Part shown: positions 8,459 through 29,519 of the stretch, piece by piece
How positions within the stretch are numbered: position 1 is the stretch's first letter
How the letters are laid out: every line of letters starts with the position of its first letter
IMG/VR virus record: IMGVR_UViG_3300026037_000015
Span: 1-56,395 of that record
Source of the DNA: a virus
Lineage: Duplodnaviria > Caudoviricetes
Strand: one strand, 5' to 3'
DNA: 56,395 nucleotides
Notes under the pieces: generated by a model
Database searches by the model: none
What the model was told of the DNA's origin: nothing
Seen by the model: only the letters and a program-made list of their open reading frames with translations
Made by a program: the position numbers and the translations under genes

Positions 8459-8550
8459 CCTGCTGCCTGCCCCCAGAACCATCGGGCCCCCGCGCCGATC
8501 CCCTCCGGCCGGGGGCCCGATGCCGTCCCCGCCCGGGGCGAGCATGAGCC

Positions 8551-9105
8551 ATGACCTCCATCACCCACCTCGGCTACCGCGAGGTCGCCCCAGGCGACCT
8601 GGCCGACTTCCCCGGGAACGCCACCATCCACGACGAGGAGGCCCTCGACGCCTCCGTCGGACGGTTCGGCCAGTTCCAGGCCCTGCTCGCCCGAGAGCTA
8701 CCCGACGGGACCCTCCAGCTCCTCGCCGGGCACGGCACCCGCGCTGCCCTGGTCCGTAACGAGGTGACCTCCACCAGGGTCGAGGTCATCCAGGTCGACG
8801 ACGAGACGGCCCTGGGCATCAACCTCGCAGCCAACGGCACCACCCGCCGCCGCGACTACGAGCCAGCGGCGCTCCTCGACCTCCTCGCCCAGGCCCGAGC
8901 TGCCGGAGGCCTCGGAGGCACCGGCTGGGACGACGCCGAACACGATCGGCTCCTGGCCCTGGTCGAGGCCCCCGCGCCTGCCCCGGAGCCGCAGCCCCCG
9001 GCCGAGTTCCCGTCCTACGACGACGAGACCATCGAGACGTCCTTCAAATGCCCGTCCTGCGGCTACCAGTGGTCGGGAAACCCAGGCTCCAGCACCGATG
9101 AGTAG
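8551..9105 (+). CDS. ParB/Sulfiredoxin-like protein with C-terminal zinc ribbon, first gene of the DNA modification operon
   Basis: PGNATIH...SVGRFGQ...LLAGHGT..A ParB-N motifs; C-terminal FKCPSCGYQW. Confidence 0.75.
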   Translation: MTSITHLGYREVAPGDLADFPGNATIHDEEALDASVGRFGQFQALLARELPDGTLQLLAGHGTRAALVRNEVTSTRVEVIQVDDETALGINLAANGTTRRRDYEPAALLDLLAQARAAGGLGGTGWDDAEHDRLLALVEAPAPAPEPQPPAEFPSYDDETIETSFKCPSCGYQWSGNPGSSTDE

Positions 9106-10324
9106 ACCTGCCTACCGGGTCCCGACCATGGTCGAGATCAGGGCCCTGCCCCCGAACGGCCTCCGGGTCATCTCCACGTTCGCGGGCGCCGGAGGATCCA
9201 GCACCGGCTACCGCATGGCCGGCTACCAGGTCATCTGGGCCAACGAGTTCGTCCCGGCTGCCGCAGCCACCTACCGGGCGAACGCCTCCCCCGGCACCAT
9301 CGTCGACACCACCGACATCCGCGAGGTCACCCCCGAGTCGATCCTGGCCGCTACCGGCCTGGCCGTCGGCGACCTGGACATCTTCGACGGCTCCCCGCCC
9401 TGCTCGGGGTTCTCCACCGTCGGGATCAGGGAGGCCGGCTGGGGAGTGACGAAGGCCTACTCGTCCACCCGGCAGCGCGTCGATGACCTGTTCTTCGAAT
9501 ACACCCGGCTCCTGCGCGGGCTCCAACCCCGAGTGTTCGTCGCCGAGAACGTCTCCGGCCTGGTCCGCGGGGTGGCCAAGGGCTACTTCAAACGGATCAT
9601 GGCCGAGATGAAGGCCTGCGGGTACCGCGTCGAGGCACGGCTCCTCGACGCCCAATGGCTGGGGGTGCCCCAGGCCCGGAAGCGGATCATCTTCATCGGT
9701 GTCCGCCGCGACCTTGGCCGGCTACCGGTTCACCCCGGTCCCCTGTCGCACCGGTATGCCGTCCGGGACGTCCTGCCCGCCCTTGAGCTCCAAGGCGGCG
9801 GACCGTGCCCGTTCGGTGAGAGCAGCTACCAGCGGACGGACCGGCCGTCCCCGACGATCGGGTCCTCGCTGACGTTCGGCAACGGCAGGTCTCCCTCTAG
9901 CGTGGTCGTCGAGACCCCGCCGACCTACGTCCATGACACCGGAGGCGAGTTCGGTCAAGGCGACGGCTCGGACCGGCCGTCACCGACGATCGTCGCGACA
10001 CCGGCATCCCTGAACCACTACCGGGTCGCAGCAGCCGACGGCGAGCCCGGACCGGTCTGGCGCGAGCACCTCCCCTACTGCCCGGAGACCGGTAAGGCCC
10101 TGATCCTGCGACCGACCGCGTCGATGAGGTACACCCCGCCGCCCGGGAGGATCATGCGTCGCCTCACGATCCCCGAGCTGCGACTCCTCAGTTCGTTCCC
10201 CGCCGACTTCGCCCTCACCGGCAGCTACGAGGAACGGTGGGAGCGCTGCGGGCGGGCCGTCCCCCCGCTGATGATGCGCGCGATCGCGTCGACCATCGCC
10301 CGGGACGTCCTGTGTGCGGGCTGA
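9098..10324 (+). CDS. DNA cytosine-C5 methyltransferase-family enzyme, probable carboxymethyltransferase
   Basis: Motif I FAGAGG, IV GSPPCSGFS, VI AENV, VIII PQARKR, IX RRLTIPEL; motif X is GRAVPP instead of GNAV. Confidence 0.9.
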   Translation: MSRPAYRVPTMVEIRALPPNGLRVISTFAGAGGSSTGYRMAGYQVIWANEFVPAAAATYRANASPGTIVDTTDIREVTPESILAATGLAVGDLDIFDGSPPCSGFSTVGIREAGWGVTKAYSSTRQRVDDLFFEYTRLLRGLQPRVFVAENVSGLVRGVAKGYFKRIMAEMKACGYRVEARLLDAQWLGVPQARKRIIFIGVRRDLGRLPVHPGPLSHRYAVRDVLPALELQGGGPCPFGESSYQRTDRPSPTIGSSLTFGNGRSPSSVVVETPPTYVHDTGGEFGQGDGSDRPSPTIVATPASLNHYRVAAADGEPGPVWREHLPYCPETGKALILRPTASMRYTPPPGRIMRRLTIPELRLLSSFPADFALTGSYEERWERCGRAVPPLMMRAIASTIARDVLCAG

Positions 10325-11754
10325 TCGGAGGAGCGCTGCCCCTGCCCTCCGTCATCCGGGGCCTCGACGCGATCGCCCACCGCGGGCCCGACGACCAGGG
10401 CGCGGCCGAGTCCGGGGCCTTCGCCCTCGGCCATACCCGCCTCGCCGTCCAGGACGTCACGTCCGCCAGCGCCCAGCCGTGGCCGGCCAGCGACGGCAGC
10501 CTGGTCACGTACAACGGGGAGGCCTGGAGACCGGACGCTCTCCGTGCGCTGCTCCCCGAGCGCACCTGGTCGACGACCGGGGACACCGAGGTCGTCGCCG
10601 AGCTGCTCGCCGCGCACGGCACCGAGGCGCTGCCCCTCCTCGACCGGGCGATGTTCGCCCTCGCCTGGGTCGACCGGGAGGGGCTCCTCCACCTCGCCCG
10701 CGATCGCTACGGCGAGGTCCCCCTCCACGTCGGCCGGCTACCTGGCTCACGCATCGCCTATGCCTCCGAGGTCGCTGCGCTCCTCCAGCTCGGGGCCCAC
10801 CCGGCGACCATCCAGTGGCTCCTCCCTGGACACGTCATGACCGTCCAGCAGGACGGCCGTACGGCGACCGTCTCCAGGTGGGCAGCCCCCGAGGTCCTGA
10901 CCCCGTCCCAGGACGGCCCGCGGGCCGCTGCTGCCGTCGTCCGGCACCACCTCATGGAGGGAGTCACCGACCGCCTCACCGGAGACGTCCCGATCGCTGT
11001 CCTCGTCTCCGGAGGCCTTGACTCTTCCCTGGTCCTCGGGATCATCCGCACGATGCGACCCGACCTCGAGGTCGGCGCCTACACGGCCGTCCACAACCCG
11101 AGGTCCCTCGACCTCGCCCACGCCAGGGCCGTCTGCGGGTCCTGGGGCATCCCCCTGCGTGAAGTCCCCGTACCGGCGCCGACGGCTGCTGACCTGGCTC
11201 GGACGGTCCGCGCCGTCGAACAGCCGCATAAGGCCCAGGTCGAGATCGGCTGGGCCTGTCTGCACCTCGCCCGGGCGATCCGGCGGGACGGGTACAAGGT
11301 GGTGCTCTCCGGTGAGGGCAGCGACGAGCTGTGGGCGTCCTACGGGAGCCCCCGGTCGATCATGGTCCATCACGGGATCAAGACGCAGGGCTGGCACCAG
11401 TACCGGGCCTCCACCTTCACCGGCCAGCACAGGAAGAACTTCGCCAGGACGAACAAGGTGTTCATGAGGCACGGGATCGAGGCCAGGCTCCCGTTCCTCG
11501 ACCCCGGCCTCGTCGGCTACGCCCTGACCCTCCCCGAGGTGACCGTCACCAGAGCTGCCGGAGGCCGTACCCACACGAAAGCGGTTCTCGCCGCAGCGGC
11601 CGCGGGCCTCGTCCCGGAGACCAGCGTGTGGCGGGCCAAGGTCGCCTTCCAGGTCGGGGCAGGCCTCGACCTGGCGGTCAAGCGTGCCGTCCCTGATCCG
11701 CGCAGGCTCTACGCGGCCGAGTTCCGGACTGCCTACGGAGGAGTCAAGCCATGA
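10312..11754 (+). CDS. asparagine synthetase B-like glutamine amidotransferase/ATP-dependent amide ligase
   Basis: GTG start then N-terminal nucleophile C-G-L; HRGPD, HTRL, YNGE, DTEV, ARDRYG, PP-loop SGGLDSS, LSGEGSDEL, EARLPFLD. Confidence 0.9.
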   Translation: MCGLIGGALPLPSVIRGLDAIAHRGPDDQGAAESGAFALGHTRLAVQDVTSASAQPWPASDGSLVTYNGEAWRPDALRALLPERTWSTTGDTEVVAELLAAHGTEALPLLDRAMFALAWVDREGLLHLARDRYGEVPLHVGRLPGSRIAYASEVAALLQLGAHPATIQWLLPGHVMTVQQDGRTATVSRWAAPEVLTPSQDGPRAAAAVVRHHLMEGVTDRLTGDVPIAVLVSGGLDSSLVLGIIRTMRPDLEVGAYTAVHNPRSLDLAHARAVCGSWGIPLREVPVPAPTAADLARTVRAVEQPHKAQVEIGWACLHLARAIRRDGYKVVLSGEGSDELWASYGSPRSIMVHHGIKTQGWHQYRASTFTGQHRKNFARTNKVFMRHGIEARLPFLDPGLVGYALTLPEVTVTRAAGGRTHTKAVLAAAAAGLVPETSVWRAKVAFQVGAGLDLAVKRAVPDPRRLYAAEFRTAYGGVKP

Positions 11755-12476
11755 CGGACATCGAGGACCGGGAGCAGCCCGGAGCGTGGACGTTCGCGCA
11801 GTTCGGGGCGCAGTTCGACAGCCACGTCATCGCCCACCTCCCGGTCTATGAGGACGTGCAGGCGATCGTTGCGGGCGTCTCCTCGTACACGCTGCCGGAC
11901 CGGGGAGTCATCGCCGACCTCGGGGCCAGCACCGGCCGGACGATCGCCCAGCTCGCGGAGCAGCACCCCGAACGACGCCTGGTCGCCCACCTCTACGACG
12001 CCGATCCGTCGATGCTCCAGGAGGCCGAGCGGCGCCTGGTCGACCACGGGAACGTGACCGGCTACCTCCATGCCGGAGACCTCACCGAGGGCGACACGTG
12101 GAGCCACCAGCGGGCCGATCTGACCCTCGCCCTGTGGCTCCTCCAGTTCATCCACCCCCGGCACCGCGTCGAGGTCCTCAAGCGGGCACGGGACCGGGCT
12201 GCCGACAACGGAGTGATCCTCCTCGGGGCGAAGGCCCGGCACCTGGACTCCAGGTGGCAGGAGATCGCAGATGGGGCCCTCGCCGACTACAAGGCCGCCG
12301 CGGGGGTGACCCCGCAGGAGATCGTCGCGAAGGCGCGCTCGCTGCGCGGCGTGCTGATCCCCGATACCGGGGAGTCGCTGGCCGGCCACCTGGTGACGGC
12401 CGGGTGGCACGCCCCGACGGTCATCCACCGCTGGCACGTCTGGACGCTGATCGGCGCATGGGCCTCCCCACGGTAG
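11751..12476 (+). CDS. CmoA-like carboxy-S-adenosylmethionine synthase / class I SAM enzyme
   Basis: WTF...FDSHV..HLP.Y, DLGASTG, LQF and YK..AG.T..EI..K..SL.GV match the CmoA family pattern (WTFD..VA.VF.DMI.RSVPGY, DLGCS.G, TLQF, FK..NGYS..EI.QKR..LENV). Confidence 0.8.
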   Translation: MTDIEDREQPGAWTFAQFGAQFDSHVIAHLPVYEDVQAIVAGVSSYTLPDRGVIADLGASTGRTIAQLAEQHPERRLVAHLYDADPSMLQEAERRLVDHGNVTGYLHAGDLTEGDTWSHQRADLTLALWLLQFIHPRHRVEVLKRARDRAADNGVILLGAKARHLDSRWQEIADGALADYKAAAGVTPQEIVAKARSLRGVLIPDTGESLAGHLVTAGWHAPTVIHRWHVWTLIGAWASPR

Positions 12477-12496
12477 GAGGCTCATGCCTGGGGGGC

Positions 12497-12724
12497 TCAC
12501 CGGGTGGCGAGTGGCTCCCGCCACCGGTAGCAGCCGGTGGTCTGGACGAGCCACCGGTGGAAGGTCACGACCCCGGAGCGGGCTGTTGCCAGCTCCTCCC
12601 GGGTGCCGCCGTAGGCGACGTCGAGGGCCAGCTCGGCAGCGAGGCGCGCTGCCCGGTAGTCCTCGACGAGCTGCTGATGTGCTGGCCAGCACCCCCGGTG
12701 TCGGGGGCTACACCCGGTTGGCAC
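12497..12724 (-). CDS. small hypothetical protein
   Basis: Downstream of and co-oriented with 12731-13051. Confidence 0.55.
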   Translation of the reverse strand: MPTGCSPRHRGCWPAHQQLVEDYRAARLAAELALDVAYGGTREELATARSGVVTFHRWLVQTTGCYRWREPLATR

Positions 12725-13196: not shown

Positions 13197-14246
13197 GTGT
13201 CCAGAGAATCCGACCGCTGGCTCAACCGCATGACCCTCATCGGCAACACCGACAAGCGCGGCACCGCCTGGCACTACCGGGCCGTCCTCCAGGGCCCCGA
13301 GAGCAACCACTACGCCGGGCCCATCCCCATCGAGGACGTCCGCCGCCGCCTCATCGGCTGGCAGCTCCAGCAGGGAACCATCTCCTCCTGCGTCATCACC
13401 GAGGACGGCGCCGACGTCTACGAGGACCCCAACCGTCTCTCCGTCATCCGCCCGCGCGGCGCGTTCGGCCCCGACGACCAGGGCGAGATCCTCGGCACCT
13501 TCCGCCGCGGGTACCGCATCCACCAGTACGACGAGTGGCTCCTCGGAGGCCTCGCCCAGATCCTCGACCAGTCCGCTGGCGAGCTGGTCATCGAGTCGGC
13601 CGGACTCCTCCGGCGCGGCGCCGTCGCCTGGGTCCAGATCGCCATGCCCGAGACCATGAACGTCGAGGGCGTCGAGTTCCGCACCCACATCACTGCCGCC
13701 ACCTCGGCTGACGGCACCCTCGCCACCGGATTCGTCGCAGGCAACCAGGAGGTCGTCTGCGACAACACCCTCCACGCCGCCTGGGTCGAGCGCGACGCCC
13801 GCAGCATCAAGATCCGCCACACCTCCGGCTCCCTCACCCAGATCCACCGGGTGCGCGACGCACTGGAGCTGGTCTACGCCGAGGCCGACGCCTTCTCGGC
13901 CGAGATCCGGGAGCTGGTCGCGACCACCGTCACCGACCGCCAATGGGCAGCTTTCCTCGACGCGCACACCCCCGTGCCGTCCAAGCCGGGCGCCGGGCGC
14001 ACCGTCGCCGAGAAGCACCGCTCCGAACTCTCCGCGCTCTGGGCAACCGACGAGCGGGTCTCCCCGTGGACCGGCACCGCCTGGGGCGTCCTCCAGGCGG
14101 TCAACACCCACCGGCACCACCTCAGCCGGGTCTCCGGCGGCGACGCCAAGCGCGGTGAGCGCAACATGGCCAACGTCGTCAAGGGCATCACCGCCCGCGA
14201 GGACCTGGCCGCGATCCGGCAGCTCCAGGGCGTCCTCTCGGCCTGA
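13197..14246 (+). CDS. DUF932 / phage-plasmid TIGR03299-like protein
   Basis: AGGAGG RBS; AWH, ESAGLLRRG, TSADGT, VVCDNT and GTAWG..QAV motifs. Confidence 0.85.
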   Translation: MSRESDRWLNRMTLIGNTDKRGTAWHYRAVLQGPESNHYAGPIPIEDVRRRLIGWQLQQGTISSCVITEDGADVYEDPNRLSVIRPRGAFGPDDQGEILGTFRRGYRIHQYDEWLLGGLAQILDQSAGELVIESAGLLRRGAVAWVQIAMPETMNVEGVEFRTHITAATSADGTLATGFVAGNQEVVCDNTLHAAWVERDARSIKIRHTSGSLTQIHRVRDALELVYAEADAFSAEIRELVATTVTDRQWAAFLDAHTPVPSKPGAGRTVAEKHRSELSALWATDERVSPWTGTAWGVLQAVNTHRHHLSRVSGGDAKRGERNMANVVKGITAREDLAAIRQLQGVLSA

Positions 14247-25485: not shown

Positions 25486-28137
25486 GTGAGTCTGCTCCAG
25501 CGGCGCCCGGCCAGCAGGCCCTCGGGCAAGGTCCTTACCGCGGCAGGACGCCAGATCAAGCTGGACCCGGCCCGGCCGCTGGGGCTCAAGCGCGCGGCGT
25601 GGCAGGAGGACGCCTGGGCCTACCGCGACCAGATCGGGGAGATCCGCTACGCGATGCAGTACCTCGCGTCGGCTGCCTCCCGGATCCGGGTGCTCCCCGC
25701 CCTCGCAGCCCCGGACGGCTCGCCGCCGACCCCGCTTGCCGAGGTCACCTCCGAGCCGGTCCCGGCCCAGGTCCTCGCCGCAGCCAACGACGCGTTGGCC
25801 CGGCTCACCGGAGATACGTGCTCCTGGGGTGAGCTGCTCGCGCCCCTCGCGGAGTGCCTCGAGGTGCCCGGTGAGGCCCTCCTCGTCGGGTACACCGAGG
25901 TCGAGTCCGGGGAGGAGCGGTGGGAGGTCCGGTCGATCGAGGGCCTGGTCTCCCGGGACCAGGGCTGGTACCTGCGAGACACCCCGGATCAGCGGCACGA
26001 GCCGAAGGACAGGCTGTCCCCTGAGAGCACCTACGTGGCCCGGCTGTGGGTCCCCCACCCCCGGTGGCGTGGCCAGGCTGACTCCCCGATGCGTGCCCTC
26101 GCCGCGTTGGGTGGCCCGTGTGAGGAGCTTCAGCTCGTTTCCCGCGCGATCCGGGCCGTCGCCCGGTCCCGGTTCGCCGGAGCAGGGATCCTCGGGATGC
26201 CCAGCGAGATCGACTTCCAGTCGACGCTCGGGGTGGAGGACGACCCGGACGACCCTGGCGCGGACACGTTCATGAGCAGCTTGACCCGTGCGCTGACGAC
26301 GTCCATCGCCGACGAGGGCGACGCATCGAGTGTCGTCCCGATCGTCGTCAGGGCCCCCGGGGAGATCATCGACAAGATCAAGCTGCTGCGGCTCGACGCG
26401 CCGATCGACGACAAGCTGATGGCACGGGGGGAGGCAGCGCTGCGCCGGATCGGGGCAGGTCTCGACGTCCCCCCCGAGATCGTCACTGGCCTCGCCGACG
26501 TCAACCACTGGACGGCCTGGCAGATCGACAGTTCGACGATCAAGAACCATGTCGAGCCCCTCCTTGTACGGATGTGCGACGCGCTGACCGCTGGGTACCT
26601 GCGGCCAGCCCTGCGCGCGGTGCCAGGCATGGGCGACTGGGCCCGGCGGATCACCCTCTGGTACGACGTCTCCCCGATCACCGTGCGACCCAACCGGACC
26701 GAGGACGCGAGAGCCGGCCACGCCGCCCTGGTCCTCTCTGACGAGGCCCTCGTGACCGCGCTGGGGTTCGACCCCGAGACGGACATGCCCCAGGAGGAGG
26801 AGCTGGCACGGCGCACGGCGCTCGCCCGCGGGCAGGTCGACGCGCCCCTGACCGAGGCCCTCATGCGGATGCTGGTCCTGCCCCAGCTCGCCGCGATCAA
26901 TCGAGGCGCCACCGTCCCCGGCGAGACCGTCGAGCCCCCCGGCGTCGACCCGCCCGGGGAGTCCGAGGACGAGGAGGACGAGGCCTCGACTCCGGGGCCG
27001 GAGACCGGTCTCCAGGCAGCCGGCCAGCCGCCTGTGGTCCTGCGCTGCTACTCCCGGGAATCGCGGCGGCTGGCTGGTATCGACCGGGCCGTCAGGGACC
27101 AGCTCGCTGCGACCGCGACCGCGGCCGTCGACCGAGCCATCGAGCGCGCCGCGAACCGCGTCCGGGGCATGGCGCAACGGGACCCAGACGCGCGGTCGAT
27201 CGTCGCCGCTGTCCCGGCCGGAGACTCGGCCCGGGCCCTCGGCCGCGAGCAGGTCACGGCTGGCCTCGGCATCGACCTCGTCGAGCTGTTCGCGGGTGCC
27301 TGGGATGCCGTCGGCCTCGCGTGGGCTGCCCTAACCGGAGCCGCGGTCCTCGCTGCCGTCGAACTGGTCGAGTCGATGACCGGCCGGACCGTGTCCGAGC
27401 AGGACCTCTCCCGGCTGGAGGAGTCCTCGGGGACGGCCTGGGAGTGGTACGCGGCTGGCCTCGCGCGTACCGCCGAACGCGGCCTGTTCGACGTCGACAC
27501 CGAGACCGGGCTGGCCGAGGACCTCGGGGAGGACCCTGGCCGGCCCGGTGTCGTCACGTCCCTGACCAGAGGAGCGCTGGCCCTCGCCGGGGGGCTCCCC
27601 GTGTCCTCTCCGGGGCTGAATGAGGACGGAGTGCCGACTCAGGCAGGGGCTCGCGTCACGGGGCTCGCGTCCGGGGACATCCTGGAGTCGCACCTGCGCG
27701 CCGCTGGCGTCGAGGTCCTCGGCTACGAATGGGTCTACGGGATCTCCCGGAACTATTTCGAGCCGCACCGGGTCCTCGACGGGACGATCTTCGAGACGTT
27801 CGACTCGGCTGCGCTGCACCACACCGGGTGGCCCGGGCCGCGCCTGGCACCGGGGGACCACAAGGGCTGCCACTGCGACGCGCAGCCCGTGTACGCCGAC
27901 GGCCCGGCGTCCCTGAGCATGGAGGCGATCGGCCAGGCGACCCTCGACCCTGCCTACCGGGCGTTCGTCGCGCAGATGGCCGCCGACGACATCTCGGCTG
28001 GTTTCCTCGACCGCTACCCCGACTTGACCTCCCCGATCCGGGAGGTCATGGAAACCGAACGGATCACCAACGTCCGTCCCTCGCGGCCGGAGTCCCCCAC
28101 CCCGATCACCGATGCCGTCCGGCAGCACAGGAGTTGA
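25486..28137 (+). CDS. portal protein, probably fused to a MuF-like head morphogenesis domain
   Basis: WQEDAW...IGEIRY, PHPR....ADSP, GLDVPPEI.TG...VNHWTAWQI resemble cluster-B-type portals; C-terminal extension with PGDHKGCHC. Confidence 0.8.
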   Translation: MSLLQRRPASRPSGKVLTAAGRQIKLDPARPLGLKRAAWQEDAWAYRDQIGEIRYAMQYLASAASRIRVLPALAAPDGSPPTPLAEVTSEPVPAQVLAAANDALARLTGDTCSWGELLAPLAECLEVPGEALLVGYTEVESGEERWEVRSIEGLVSRDQGWYLRDTPDQRHEPKDRLSPESTYVARLWVPHPRWRGQADSPMRALAALGGPCEELQLVSRAIRAVARSRFAGAGILGMPSEIDFQSTLGVEDDPDDPGADTFMSSLTRALTTSIADEGDASSVVPIVVRAPGEIIDKIKLLRLDAPIDDKLMARGEAALRRIGAGLDVPPEIVTGLADVNHWTAWQIDSSTIKNHVEPLLVRMCDALTAGYLRPALRAVPGMGDWARRITLWYDVSPITVRPNRTEDARAGHAALVLSDEALVTALGFDPETDMPQEEELARRTALARGQVDAPLTEALMRMLVLPQLAAINRGATVPGETVEPPGVDPPGESEDEEDEASTPGPETGLQAAGQPPVVLRCYSRESRRLAGIDRAVRDQLAATATAAVDRAIERAANRVRGMAQRDPDARSIVAAVPAGDSARALGREQVTAGLGIDLVELFAGAWDAVGLAWAALTGAAVLAAVELVESMTGRTVSEQDLSRLEESSGTAWEWYAAGLARTAERGLFDVDTETGLAEDLGEDPGRPGVVTSLTRGALALAGGLPVSSPGLNEDGVPTQAGARVTGLASGDILESHLRAAGVEVLGYEWVYGISRNYFEPHRVLDGTIFETFDSAALHHTGWPGPRLAPGDHKGCHCDAQPVYADGPASLSMEAIGQATLDPAYRAFVAQMAADDISAGFLDRYPDLTSPIREVMETERITNVRPSRPESPTPITDAVRQHRS

Positions 28138-28139
28138 CC

Positions 28140-29519
28140 ATGGGAGCCAGGTTCCGCGCCATCACGATCTTCGAGGGAGTCGATACCGGCGACAAGCGGA
28201 CCATCGCGCCGGGCGCCCTCACCCACCGGGCGCTGCCGATGTCGCTGATGAGCCTCTTCGAGACCCCCGAGTTCGGTGGCCACGGCGGAGCGACCGTCGT
28301 CGGGTCGATCACGGAGATGTCCCGGGAGGACGCCACATCCTGGATCGATGAGGCGACCGGCCAGACCTGGGGTGAGGTCGCAGGCGGGCAGGTCTGGGCC
28401 TGGATCGGAACCGGCGAGTTCGCCGACACCGACGACGCGATCAAGGCCGAGGACCTCGTGAGGGGCCAGCACCTGCGCGGCGTGTCCGCCGACCTCGCAG
28501 CGATGGAGGCCGAGGTCGAGATCTTGGAGGAGGACGACGAGGGATGGCCGACGGACTGGCTGGAGACCATGACCAGCGCCGAGATCGCGGCCGCGACGGT
28601 CTGCAACGTCCCGGCGTTCCGGGGCTGCACGATCGAGCTGATCGAGGACACCGACCAGGACGGCGAGCCTGGCGAGCCCGAGGAGGAGCCCGCAGGCGCC
28701 GGTGTCACGGCCGCCGCTGAGCCGTGGCTGCCAGCGTTCAGGGTCTTGCCTGCCCCCAGGTGCGCGCCGTGCGAGGTCGGGGCAGTCACGGCCTCCGGGG
28801 GGCCACTCGACCCGCCCGGAGCCTGGTTCGCGGACCCTGGTCTCGGCCGGCCGACTCCGTTGACCGTGACCGCAGACGGCCGTGTGTTCGGCCACCTCGC
28901 GGCCTGGGGGACGTGCCACACGGGTTTCGCCGGGCAGTGTGTGACCCCGCCCCGGTCGTCCTCCGGGTACGCGCTGTTCCGTACCGGGGCCGTCCTCACG
29001 GCCGAGGGCCAGGAGGTGCCCGTCGGGCACATCACCCTCGGCACCGGCCACGCCGACCTGCACAGCGACTACCGGGCGGCCGCCGCGCACTACGACAACA
29101 CCGGGACGGTCGTAGCGGACGTCGCGGCCGGAGAGGACGAGCACGGCGTGTGGGTCGCTGGGGCGATCCGTCCTGACGTCACCGAGCAGCAGGTCAGGGC
29201 CCTCCGTGCCGCCCCGCTGTCCGGGGACTGGCGCCGGTACGGCTCCGGCCTGGAGATGGTCGCCGCGCTCGCCGTAAATACGCCGGGATTCCCTGTGCCG
29301 CGGGTCTCCAGCCTCGCGGCCTCCGGGCGTCCGTCGGCTCTCGTCGCGGCCGGAGCCCGGCCGCTGGCCATCGCTCGGCAGGCCCCGGACACCGAGAGGA
29401 TCGCCGGTCAGGTCCGGACCCTCGTCGCTGCCGCCGTCGCGCCGCTCCTGCCCGCGGCCAAGGCCGCTCACCTCGCCCGTATCCGGTCTGCCCGAGCCAA
29501 CAGAGGAGCCACCCAGTGA
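28140..29519 (+). CDS. capsid maturation protease (cluster-B-like)
   Basis: TGDKR, GVSADL, PAF, GRVFGHLAAWGTCH, SGDWR, VNTPGFP; located between portal and capsid. Confidence 0.75.
   Translation: MGARFRAITIFEGVDTGDKRTIAPGALTHRALPMSLMSLFETPEFGGHGGATVVGSITEMSREDATSWIDEATGQTWGEVAGGQVWAWIGTGEFADTDDAIKAEDLVRGQHLRGVSADLAAMEAEVEILEEDDEGWPTDWLETMTSAEIAAATVCNVPAFRGCTIELIEDTDQDGEPGEPEEEPAGAGVTAAAEPWLPAFRVLPAPRCAPCEVGAVTASGGPLDPPGAWFADPGLGRPTPLTVTADGRVFGHLAAWGTCHTGFAGQCVTPPRSSSGYALFRTGAVLTAEGQEVPVGHITLGTGHADLHSDYRAAAAHYDNTGTVVADVAAGEDEHGVWVAGAIRPDVTEQQVRALRAAPLSGDWRRYGSGLEMVAALAVNTPGFPVPRVSSLAASGRPSALVAAGARPLAIARQAPDTERIAGQVRTLVAAAVAPLLPAAKAAHLARIRSARANRGATQ

Follow-up and report, generated by a model that had tools for sequence, protein, structure and literature searches.

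What cofactor is used by a DNA cytosine C5-methylase whose motif X carries an arginine in the place of the canonical asparagine? The question is raised by the open reading frame (ORF) at 9098-10324 on the plus strand of IMG/VR virus record IMGVR_UViG_3300026037_000015, which we analysed over its whole length of 56,395 bases (hereafter, the window). An earlier note on this DNA had proposed that the arginine binds the carboxylate of carboxy-S-adenosylmethionine (Cx-SAM); it saw in the enzyme a carboxymethyltransferase supplied by a cmoA gene, not an ordinary methylase using S-adenosylmethionine (SAM). This CmoX-type idea is correct, yet already in print: SpCmoX, from Synechococcus phage S-B43 (PDB 8YF3), is a DNA C5-carboxymethyltransferase using Cx-SAM (Yang et al., Nat Commun 2025, PMC12783734). 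We consider, with a probability of about 0.88, that the ORF encodes a CmoX-family enzyme which would use Cx-SAM to carboxymethylate cytosine at C5 in phage DNA. The features that carry this reading are the following.

9098-10324, + strand: predicted CmoX-type DNA cytosine C5-carboxymethyltransferase, 408 residues (PF00145, 8yf3)
9392-9403, + strand: SPPC motif S99-P100-P101-C102, with C102 the predicted catalytic nucleophile (aligned to S95-C98 of SpCmoX)
10241-10270, + strand: motif X, ERCGRAVPPL, with the signature E382-R383-x-G385-R386 (translation; Arg-type rows)
10253-10255, + strand: codon CGG, R386, predicted ligand of the Cx-SAM carboxylate (aligned to R350 of 8yf3)

Positions 10241-10270 read GAG CGC TGC GGG CGG GCC GTC CCC CCG CTG in the frame of the 408-residue ORF, with CGG as codon 386. 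A reading error or frame artefact was ruled out, the frame being open over 408 codons with a third-position G+C of 0.89. Using phmmer against solved structures, we found R386 opposite the asparagine of GNAVP in M.HaeIII (1dct, 3ubt) and of GNAVPP in DNMT1 (3pt9, 3pt6), and in three alignments it paired with R350 of SpCmoX: the C-terminal motif ERVGRMVPPLMM of 8yf3 matches ERCGRAVPPLMM of the window enzyme, which makes R386 the counterpart of residue 350 of the 8yf3 chain. Consistently with the earlier note, arginine thus replaces the asparagine that marks motif X of an ordinary 5-methylcytosine methyltransferase. The M.MpeI structure (4dkj) was not retrieved by a 60-residue C-terminal query of the window enzyme, and the equivalence of R386 with M.MpeI N374 is taken from a published statement on the SpCmoX arginine (PMC12783734), not from a direct alignment. 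Moreover, arginine occupies this position in 113 of the 114 close homologues aligned (114 of 120 matches listed, six with query coverage ≤78% being excluded), with asparagine in the remaining one (P0117), and in 78 of the best 80 IMG/VR loci. Since it is retained at this frequency in both sets and forms part of a fixed signature in all 84 Arg-type rows, the motif-X arginine is, on the evidence of conservation, not a chance substitution.

The rest of the protein is in keeping with this assignment. It matches the C5-cytosine methylase family of Pfam (PF00145, E 2e-48) and NCBIfam TIGR00675 (151 bits, cut-off 100.65), and its top sequence match in the PDB was 8yf3 (E 3e-62), followed by HaeIII (3e-22); BLASTP gave 34% identity to SpCmoX (E 2e-68). 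An AlphaFold2 model built from the 114 homologues (mean predicted local distance difference test score, pLDDT, 87.9) retrieved 8yf3 first in Foldseek (E 1.7e-25), with HaeIII, DNMT1 and HhaI behind. SPPC is kept in 114/114 homologues, and residues F25, E47, F48, D69 and C98 of SpCmoX correspond in the BLASTP alignment to F28, E50, F51, D73 and C102 of the window enzyme, all of which are fully conserved among the homologues or conserved to at least 90%. The window protein therefore combines the fold, SPPC, the arginine at the R350 position, the cofactor contacts and a linked cmoA, by which a CmoX enzyme is recognised. We infer its activity, its target sequence and the ammonia-derived amide discussed below; SpCmoX is specific for GC, but this specificity cannot be assumed here, since the target-recognition regions of the two enzymes are unalignable.

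What the arginine does is known from SpCmoX, whose crystal structure was published in December 2025. In vitro this enzyme yields 5-carboxymethylcytosine (5cxmC) from Cx-SAM, in E. coli it requires cmoA to do so, and the wild-type protein accepts Cx-SAM and refuses SAM; in the 1.9 A structure with Cx-SAM, R350 touches the carboxymethyl group, in place of Asn-304 of M.HhaI (PMC12783734). According to the authors this arginine "strikingly mirrors" the engineered N374K change of M.MpeI (PMC12783734), and the report on the latter confirms the premise of the earlier note, namely that M.MpeI N374K gains the use of Cx-SAM, with a proposed salt bridge to the carboxylate (PMC12015181). The structure and assays of this 34%-identical homologue support the proposal that a natural arginine binds the Cx-SAM carboxylate in a carboxymethyltransferase fed by cmoA (PMC12783734). 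A further prediction of the earlier note, that an R386N mutant would favour methylation, is contradicted in the homologue, as SpCmoX R350N accepts neither SAM nor Cx-SAM (PMC12783734).

If the arginine serves Cx-SAM, it should travel with the gene for the synthase, and the co-occurrence check suggested in the earlier note was positive. In IMG/VR, 576 of 597 pattern matches encoded a relative, and the best 80 were used; 78 carried arginine at motif X, one asparagine (L027) and one leucine (L077). Cultured phages were added as hand-chosen rows, not as a random sample. For several rows, whose C-terminus was lost in the hmmalign alignment to the CmoX profile, the residue was read by eye from the C-terminal sequence. 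A gene for CmoA was found in 67 of the 80 IMG/VR loci by tblastn and in 74 by profile, and by profile it was present in 74 of 78 Arg-type loci compared with 0 of 2 non-Arg loci. The four Arg-type loci lacking it (L029, L058, L060, L080) are cut short on one side, where the contig reaches only 612-1462 bases beyond the methylase; they were therefore treated as undecided and left out of the overall counts. In one of them (L029:4250-5191) we also observed a second, canonical C5-methylase with asparagine in motif X (LRALGNALVP), 2.5 kb downstream of the Arg-type CmoX. Record-level tblastn with the window CmoA missed the cmoA of Pseudomonas phage PaBG, and absence was therefore scored by whole-record profile searches with positive controls. 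All five cultured Arg-type enzymes (TurkishDelight, Dickeya AD1, Pseudomonas PaBG, Moraxella Mcat8 and S-B43) came with cmoA, and by the whole-record profile (positive controls PaBG and AD1, 2/2) cmoA was found in none of the seven cultured relatives with asparagine, leucine or methionine. The rows without cmoA and the overall counts were as follows.

Cultured, Asn: CL131
Cultured, Leu: Melnitz-3
Cultured, Met: BMBtp14, LoVEphage, phi18:3, MD05, FpV9
Arg at motif X: cmoA present, 80; cmoA absent, 0 (four cut loci excluded)
Non-Arg at motif X: cmoA present, 2 (Gly, Staphylococcus phages); cmoA absent, 9 (Asn, Leu or Met)

This result agrees with the published census, in which cmoA is the usual companion of CmoX (PMC12783734): the family filter of that paper is SPPC plus R350, and it gives 5,615 sequences with both, 4,257 CmoA genes in their contigs and 1660 ParBc proteins in CmoX contigs (PMC12783734).

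Departures from arginine inside the Arg clade followed the same pattern. In a quick IQ-TREE phylogeny of 95 rows, the Asn-type L027 fell in a clade with four rows having both arginine and cmoA (Shimodaira-Hasegawa-like approximate likelihood ratio test, SH-aLRT, 96) and the Leu-type L077 was sister to another such row (SH-aLRT 95), from which we conclude that, on this tree, these are two separate departures from arginine, each without cmoA. Both natural variants, L027:1346-2731 (ARCGNAVPP) and L077:976-2007 (ARLGLSVPP), have alanine in place of the glutamate four residues before the motif-X position, and each may have gone back to plain methylation or be a dead gene. In L077 the gene order is ParB, methylase, small terminase, large terminase and portal, the slot of cmoA being empty. 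A separate observation concerns the methionine rows (L089, L092, L093, L094 and L095, from Bacillus BMBtp14, Bacteroides LoVEphage, Cellulophaga phi18:3, Rhodobacteraceae MD05 and Flavobacterium FpV9), which share Y-x-x-G-M-S-V-P-P, have no cmoA in the record by the same profile, and group with SpCmoX and Melnitz-3 (SH-aLRT 97) on a quick tree in which some branches are long; even enzymes presumed to be ordinary methylases, such as those of this Met clade without cmoA, thus do not always have asparagine.

The cmoA of the window lies 1.4 kb downstream of CmoX, in a cassette of four genes with overlapping ends (ParB-like, CmoX, CmoY, CmoA), whose other members are listed below.

8551-9105, + strand: ParB-like protein, 184 residues, its end overlapping the CmoX start by 8 bases (PHROG 723, "ParB-like partition protein", E 1.8e-29)
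10312-11754, + strand: predicted CmoY of the glutamine-amidotransferase type, 480 residues (GATase_6/7 and Asn_synthase)
11751-12476, + strand: CmoA-like carboxy-SAM synthase, 241 residues (E. coli CmoA structures)

The top PDB matches of the CmoA-like protein were the E. coli CmoA structures 4gek (3.6e-9) and 4iwn, and a profile of cassette-linked CmoA homologues strengthened this to 1.3e-51 for 4gek and 6.4e-49 for 1im8, the next family following at 5e-21; identity to the biochemically proven SpCmoA was 24% (E 2e-21). The ParB-like protein had no Pfam match at E 0.01, and a gene of this kind stands upstream of the methylase in 72 of the 80 IMG/VR loci as well as in TurkishDelight, PaBG and BMBtp14. 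CmoY shares 13 bases with the end of CmoX and 4 with the beginning of CmoA; its start was placed at GTG 10312, which gives the M-C-G-L-I-G N-terminus of a class-II glutamine amidotransferase. It matched E. coli AsnB (1ct9) over residues 21-453 (E 4.3e-34) and retained the SGGLDS PP-loop, so that the N-terminal cysteine and the PP-loop ATP site expected of a glutamine-type CmoY are both present.

These genes suggest the following pathway. The phage CmoA (11751-12476) would make Cx-SAM from SAM and prephenate; C102 of CmoX would attack C6 of a flipped-out cytosine, as in ordinary C5-methylases, and R386, standing in the position of the motif-X asparagine, would pair with the Cx-SAM carboxylate, so that Cx-SAM is chosen over SAM. 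In this way CmoX would convert cytosines of the phage genome into 5-carboxymethylcytosine by carboxymethylation at C5, and CmoY (10312-11754) would most probably activate the new carboxyl group by adenylation and couple it to ammonia taken from glutamine, giving 5-carbamoylmethylcytosine; the outcome is presumably that the phage DNA is shielded from host nucleases. In AsnB-type enzymes, a class-II glutamine amidotransferase domain delivers the ammonia. That an actinophage-like virus carries 5-carbamoylmethylcytosine through this route (Cx-SAM by CmoA, 5cxmC by CmoX, the primary amide by CmoY) is a proposal to which we give an even chance from the gene content; our literature search turned up no description of this base as a constituent of DNA.

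The amide step is where an alternative survives best. The enzyme could be a carboxymethyltransferase whose final product is not a simple amide, another amine or substrate being used and the DNA carrying 5cxmC or some other conjugate. The shorter SpCmoY has been shown to ligate glycine in amide linkage (PMC12783734), the paper describes CmoY clusters that differ in their active sites and whose amines are unknown (PMC12783734), and the CmoY of the window, with 230 bits, remains under the AsnB equivalog cut-off of TIGR01536 (267), which suggests an acceptor site unlike that of AsnB. Its complete class-II amidotransferase domain, with the N-terminal cysteine (M-C-G) and the PP-loop, argues for ammonia instead, as does the paper, which predicts glutamine-derived ammonia as the amine for amidotransferase-type CmoY (PMC12783734). 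Among the IMG/VR loci, 33 of 80 had a CmoY-like gene, of which 20 were synthetase-only, like SpCmoY, and 13 were full-length with the amidotransferase domain; all 13 start with [M/V]-C-G, and the window protein is of this type. We therefore regard a different conjugate as possible but rather unlikely.

Several observations weigh against the CmoX reading or its pathway. The window enzyme is only 34% identical to SpCmoX, and residues ~225-350, the target-recognition part, could not be aligned. The CmoA-like protein scored 59.9 and 59.2 bits, far below the 193.3 required for the bacterial equivalog TIGR00740; the phage CmoA branch is divergent by this measure, so that the protein is CmoA-like in its presumed working and outside that equivalog. 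The co-occurrence reduces to four phylogenetically independent contrasts between Arg and non-Arg, of which cmoA follows arginine in three to four and runs opposite in none (the four cut loci excluded); four contrasts are too few for a significant sign test (median p 0.125). For the last step, the authors of the SpCmoX study did not obtain a soluble glutamine-type CmoY (PMC12783734).

Some results also speak against a simple equation of arginine with Cx-SAM. R350N did not make SpCmoX a methylase (PMC12783734), and in two Staphylococcus phages cmoA adjoins a C5-methylase with glycine at motif X (DVVGGVINQ; motif X was placed by eye, the HhaI alignment ending just before it):

L087:5992-7691: Staphylococcus phage SPbeta-like, cmoA directly beside the C5-methylase
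L086:5980-8498: Staphylococcus phage vB-SscS-F1, a short Asn-synthase-like gene between cmoA and the C5-methylase

Possibly, DNA methylases that use Cx-SAM without the arginine form a second lineage here, one that a filter for SPPC and R350 would miss. Moreover, whole-record searches, run with no positive control, found no CmoX-family match in three phages that have cmoA (Gordonia Evaa, MT835562 and Alcaligenes Afa-NA1). In Gordonia phage Evaa (61 kb; L083:1-3952, genes 1-5) we observed a CmoA 41% identical to that of the window and, near its gene, a ParB-like gene and a 511-residue "ParB-N-terminal-like domain methyltransferase" without a PF00145 match, which could represent another kind of Cx-SAM acceptor enzyme. 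The authors of the SpCmoX paper found no N6- or N4-carboxymethyltransferase candidates (PMC12783734).

With these reservations, could the window enzyme still be an ordinary SAM-dependent C5-methyltransferase that merely tolerates arginine, its cmoA serving tRNA modification or SAM depletion? It has all canonical C5-methylase motifs; engineered Asn-to-Lys enzymes still methylate with SAM (M.MedI-N377K >99%, M.MpeI-N374K 28%; PMC12015181); and SAM depletion by CmoA is posed as an open question by the authors of the SpCmoX study (PMC12783734). We considered this explanation and rejected it as very improbable: wild-type SpCmoX takes only Cx-SAM (PMC12783734), arginine occurred together with cmoA in every decided case and never alone, the in-clade variants that lost arginine are also without cmoA, and the cassette has no cmoB-like tRNA partner.

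The CmoX reading is further refined by a signature around the arginine. All 84 Arg-type rows have glutamate at -4 and arginine at -3, that is, a fixed E-R-x-[GS]-R, and glutamate at -4 is found in none of the 11 non-Arg rows (four Ala, five Tyr, two Asp); the Asn-type homologue P0117 retains it. In the AlphaFold2 model E382 and R386 are one helical turn apart, within a predicted helix at 377-386. This glutamate is not mentioned in the main text of the CmoX paper (PMC12783734). As a side reading from sequence conservation, the fixed E382-R386 pair, and not the arginine alone, may make the pocket refuse SAM, which would account for a dead R350N beside surviving natural Asn and Leu variants in which the glutamate became alanine and cmoA is missing. 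The constancy of E382 as a companion, suggestive of a structural pair, could also be taken, together with the inactivity of SpCmoX R350N with both cofactors and its failure to switch to SAM (PMC12783734) and with the cmoA-linked Staphylococcus methylases lacking arginine, to mean that R386 is mainly structural or DNA-contacting and that cofactor choice is made elsewhere in the pocket; we give this little credence, as R350 lies directly on the carboxymethyl group of Cx-SAM in the crystal structure (PMC12783734) and N374K by itself gives M.MpeI the use of Cx-SAM (PMC12015181).

The window enzyme is thus an uncharacterised member of a described family, in a less-studied, glutamine-dependent version of the pathway, and its arginine as such adds little to knowledge. 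What can be tested here is the glutamine-dependent ligase branch, for which a compact set of four genes is available in the window and in Streptomyces phage TurkishDelight; and the E-R-x-G-R signature, the joint loss of arginine and cmoA, and the Arg-free Staphylococcus cases are aids to defining the family beyond "SPPC plus Arg".

As to the genome itself, the window spans an entire IMG/VR virus record, with direct terminal repeats, a CheckV estimate of 78% and 71% G+C. It encodes a terminase, a portal, major head and tail proteins, a tape measure, a DnaB-like helicase, a RusA-like resolvase and a WhiB-like regulator, a gene set from which we take it to be a siphovirus-like phage, probably of an actinobacterial host. 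Just downstream of the modification cassette, past two small minus-strand ORFs, 13197-14246 (+) encodes a 349-residue DUF932 protein (Pfam E 8.1e-39; PHROG 1221, function unknown, E 5.4e-78). Elsewhere, two long plus-strand ORFs, 25486-28137 and 27729-29519, overlap by ~400 bases; the former matches portal protein and the latter, besides portal, families of head maturation proteases and virion structural proteins. This may point to a frameshift, a wrongly placed start or a fusion of portal and protease.

How does this system compare with known ones? The closest named phage is TurkishDelight (NC_073473), whose gp122-gp125 reproduce the cassette in gene types and order, with 47% identity for CmoX, 46% for CmoY (gp124) and 44% for CmoA, and whose motif X likewise has arginine: QRWERIGRAVPP. 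Its genes are annotated generically (ParB-like, methyltransferase, glutamine amidotransferase domain, methyltransferase), and our literature search found no mention of this phage. It is a different phage, without a nucleotide-level match to the window; positions 8500-12500, compared by megablast with 50,697 phage records, matched none of them. SpCmoX shares with the window enzyme the fold, SPPC, E-R-x-G-R with its arginine, and the F/E/F/D contacts to adenine and ribose, and both are accompanied by a phage cmoA and a ligase resembling Asn synthetase. The window enzyme is, however, 36 residues longer; its gene order is ParB-CmoX-CmoY-CmoA, compared with CmoA-CmoY-CmoX in S-B43; its ligase has a glutamine amidotransferase domain, which SpCmoY lacks; and its genome is that of an actinophage-like siphovirus with 71% G+C, whereas SpCmoX comes from a cyanomyovirus. 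M.MpeI N374K and M.MedI N377K resemble it in placing a positive side chain at the position of the motif-X asparagine, by which they gain Cx-SAM use through the proposed salt bridge, but they are laboratory mutants of CG-specific methylases, carry lysine and still use SAM, whereas the natural family has arginine and SpCmoX refuses SAM. M.HhaI, M.HaeIII and DNMT1, finally, have the same fold and catalytic motifs, with asparagine in motif X where the window enzyme has arginine, and no cmoA partner.

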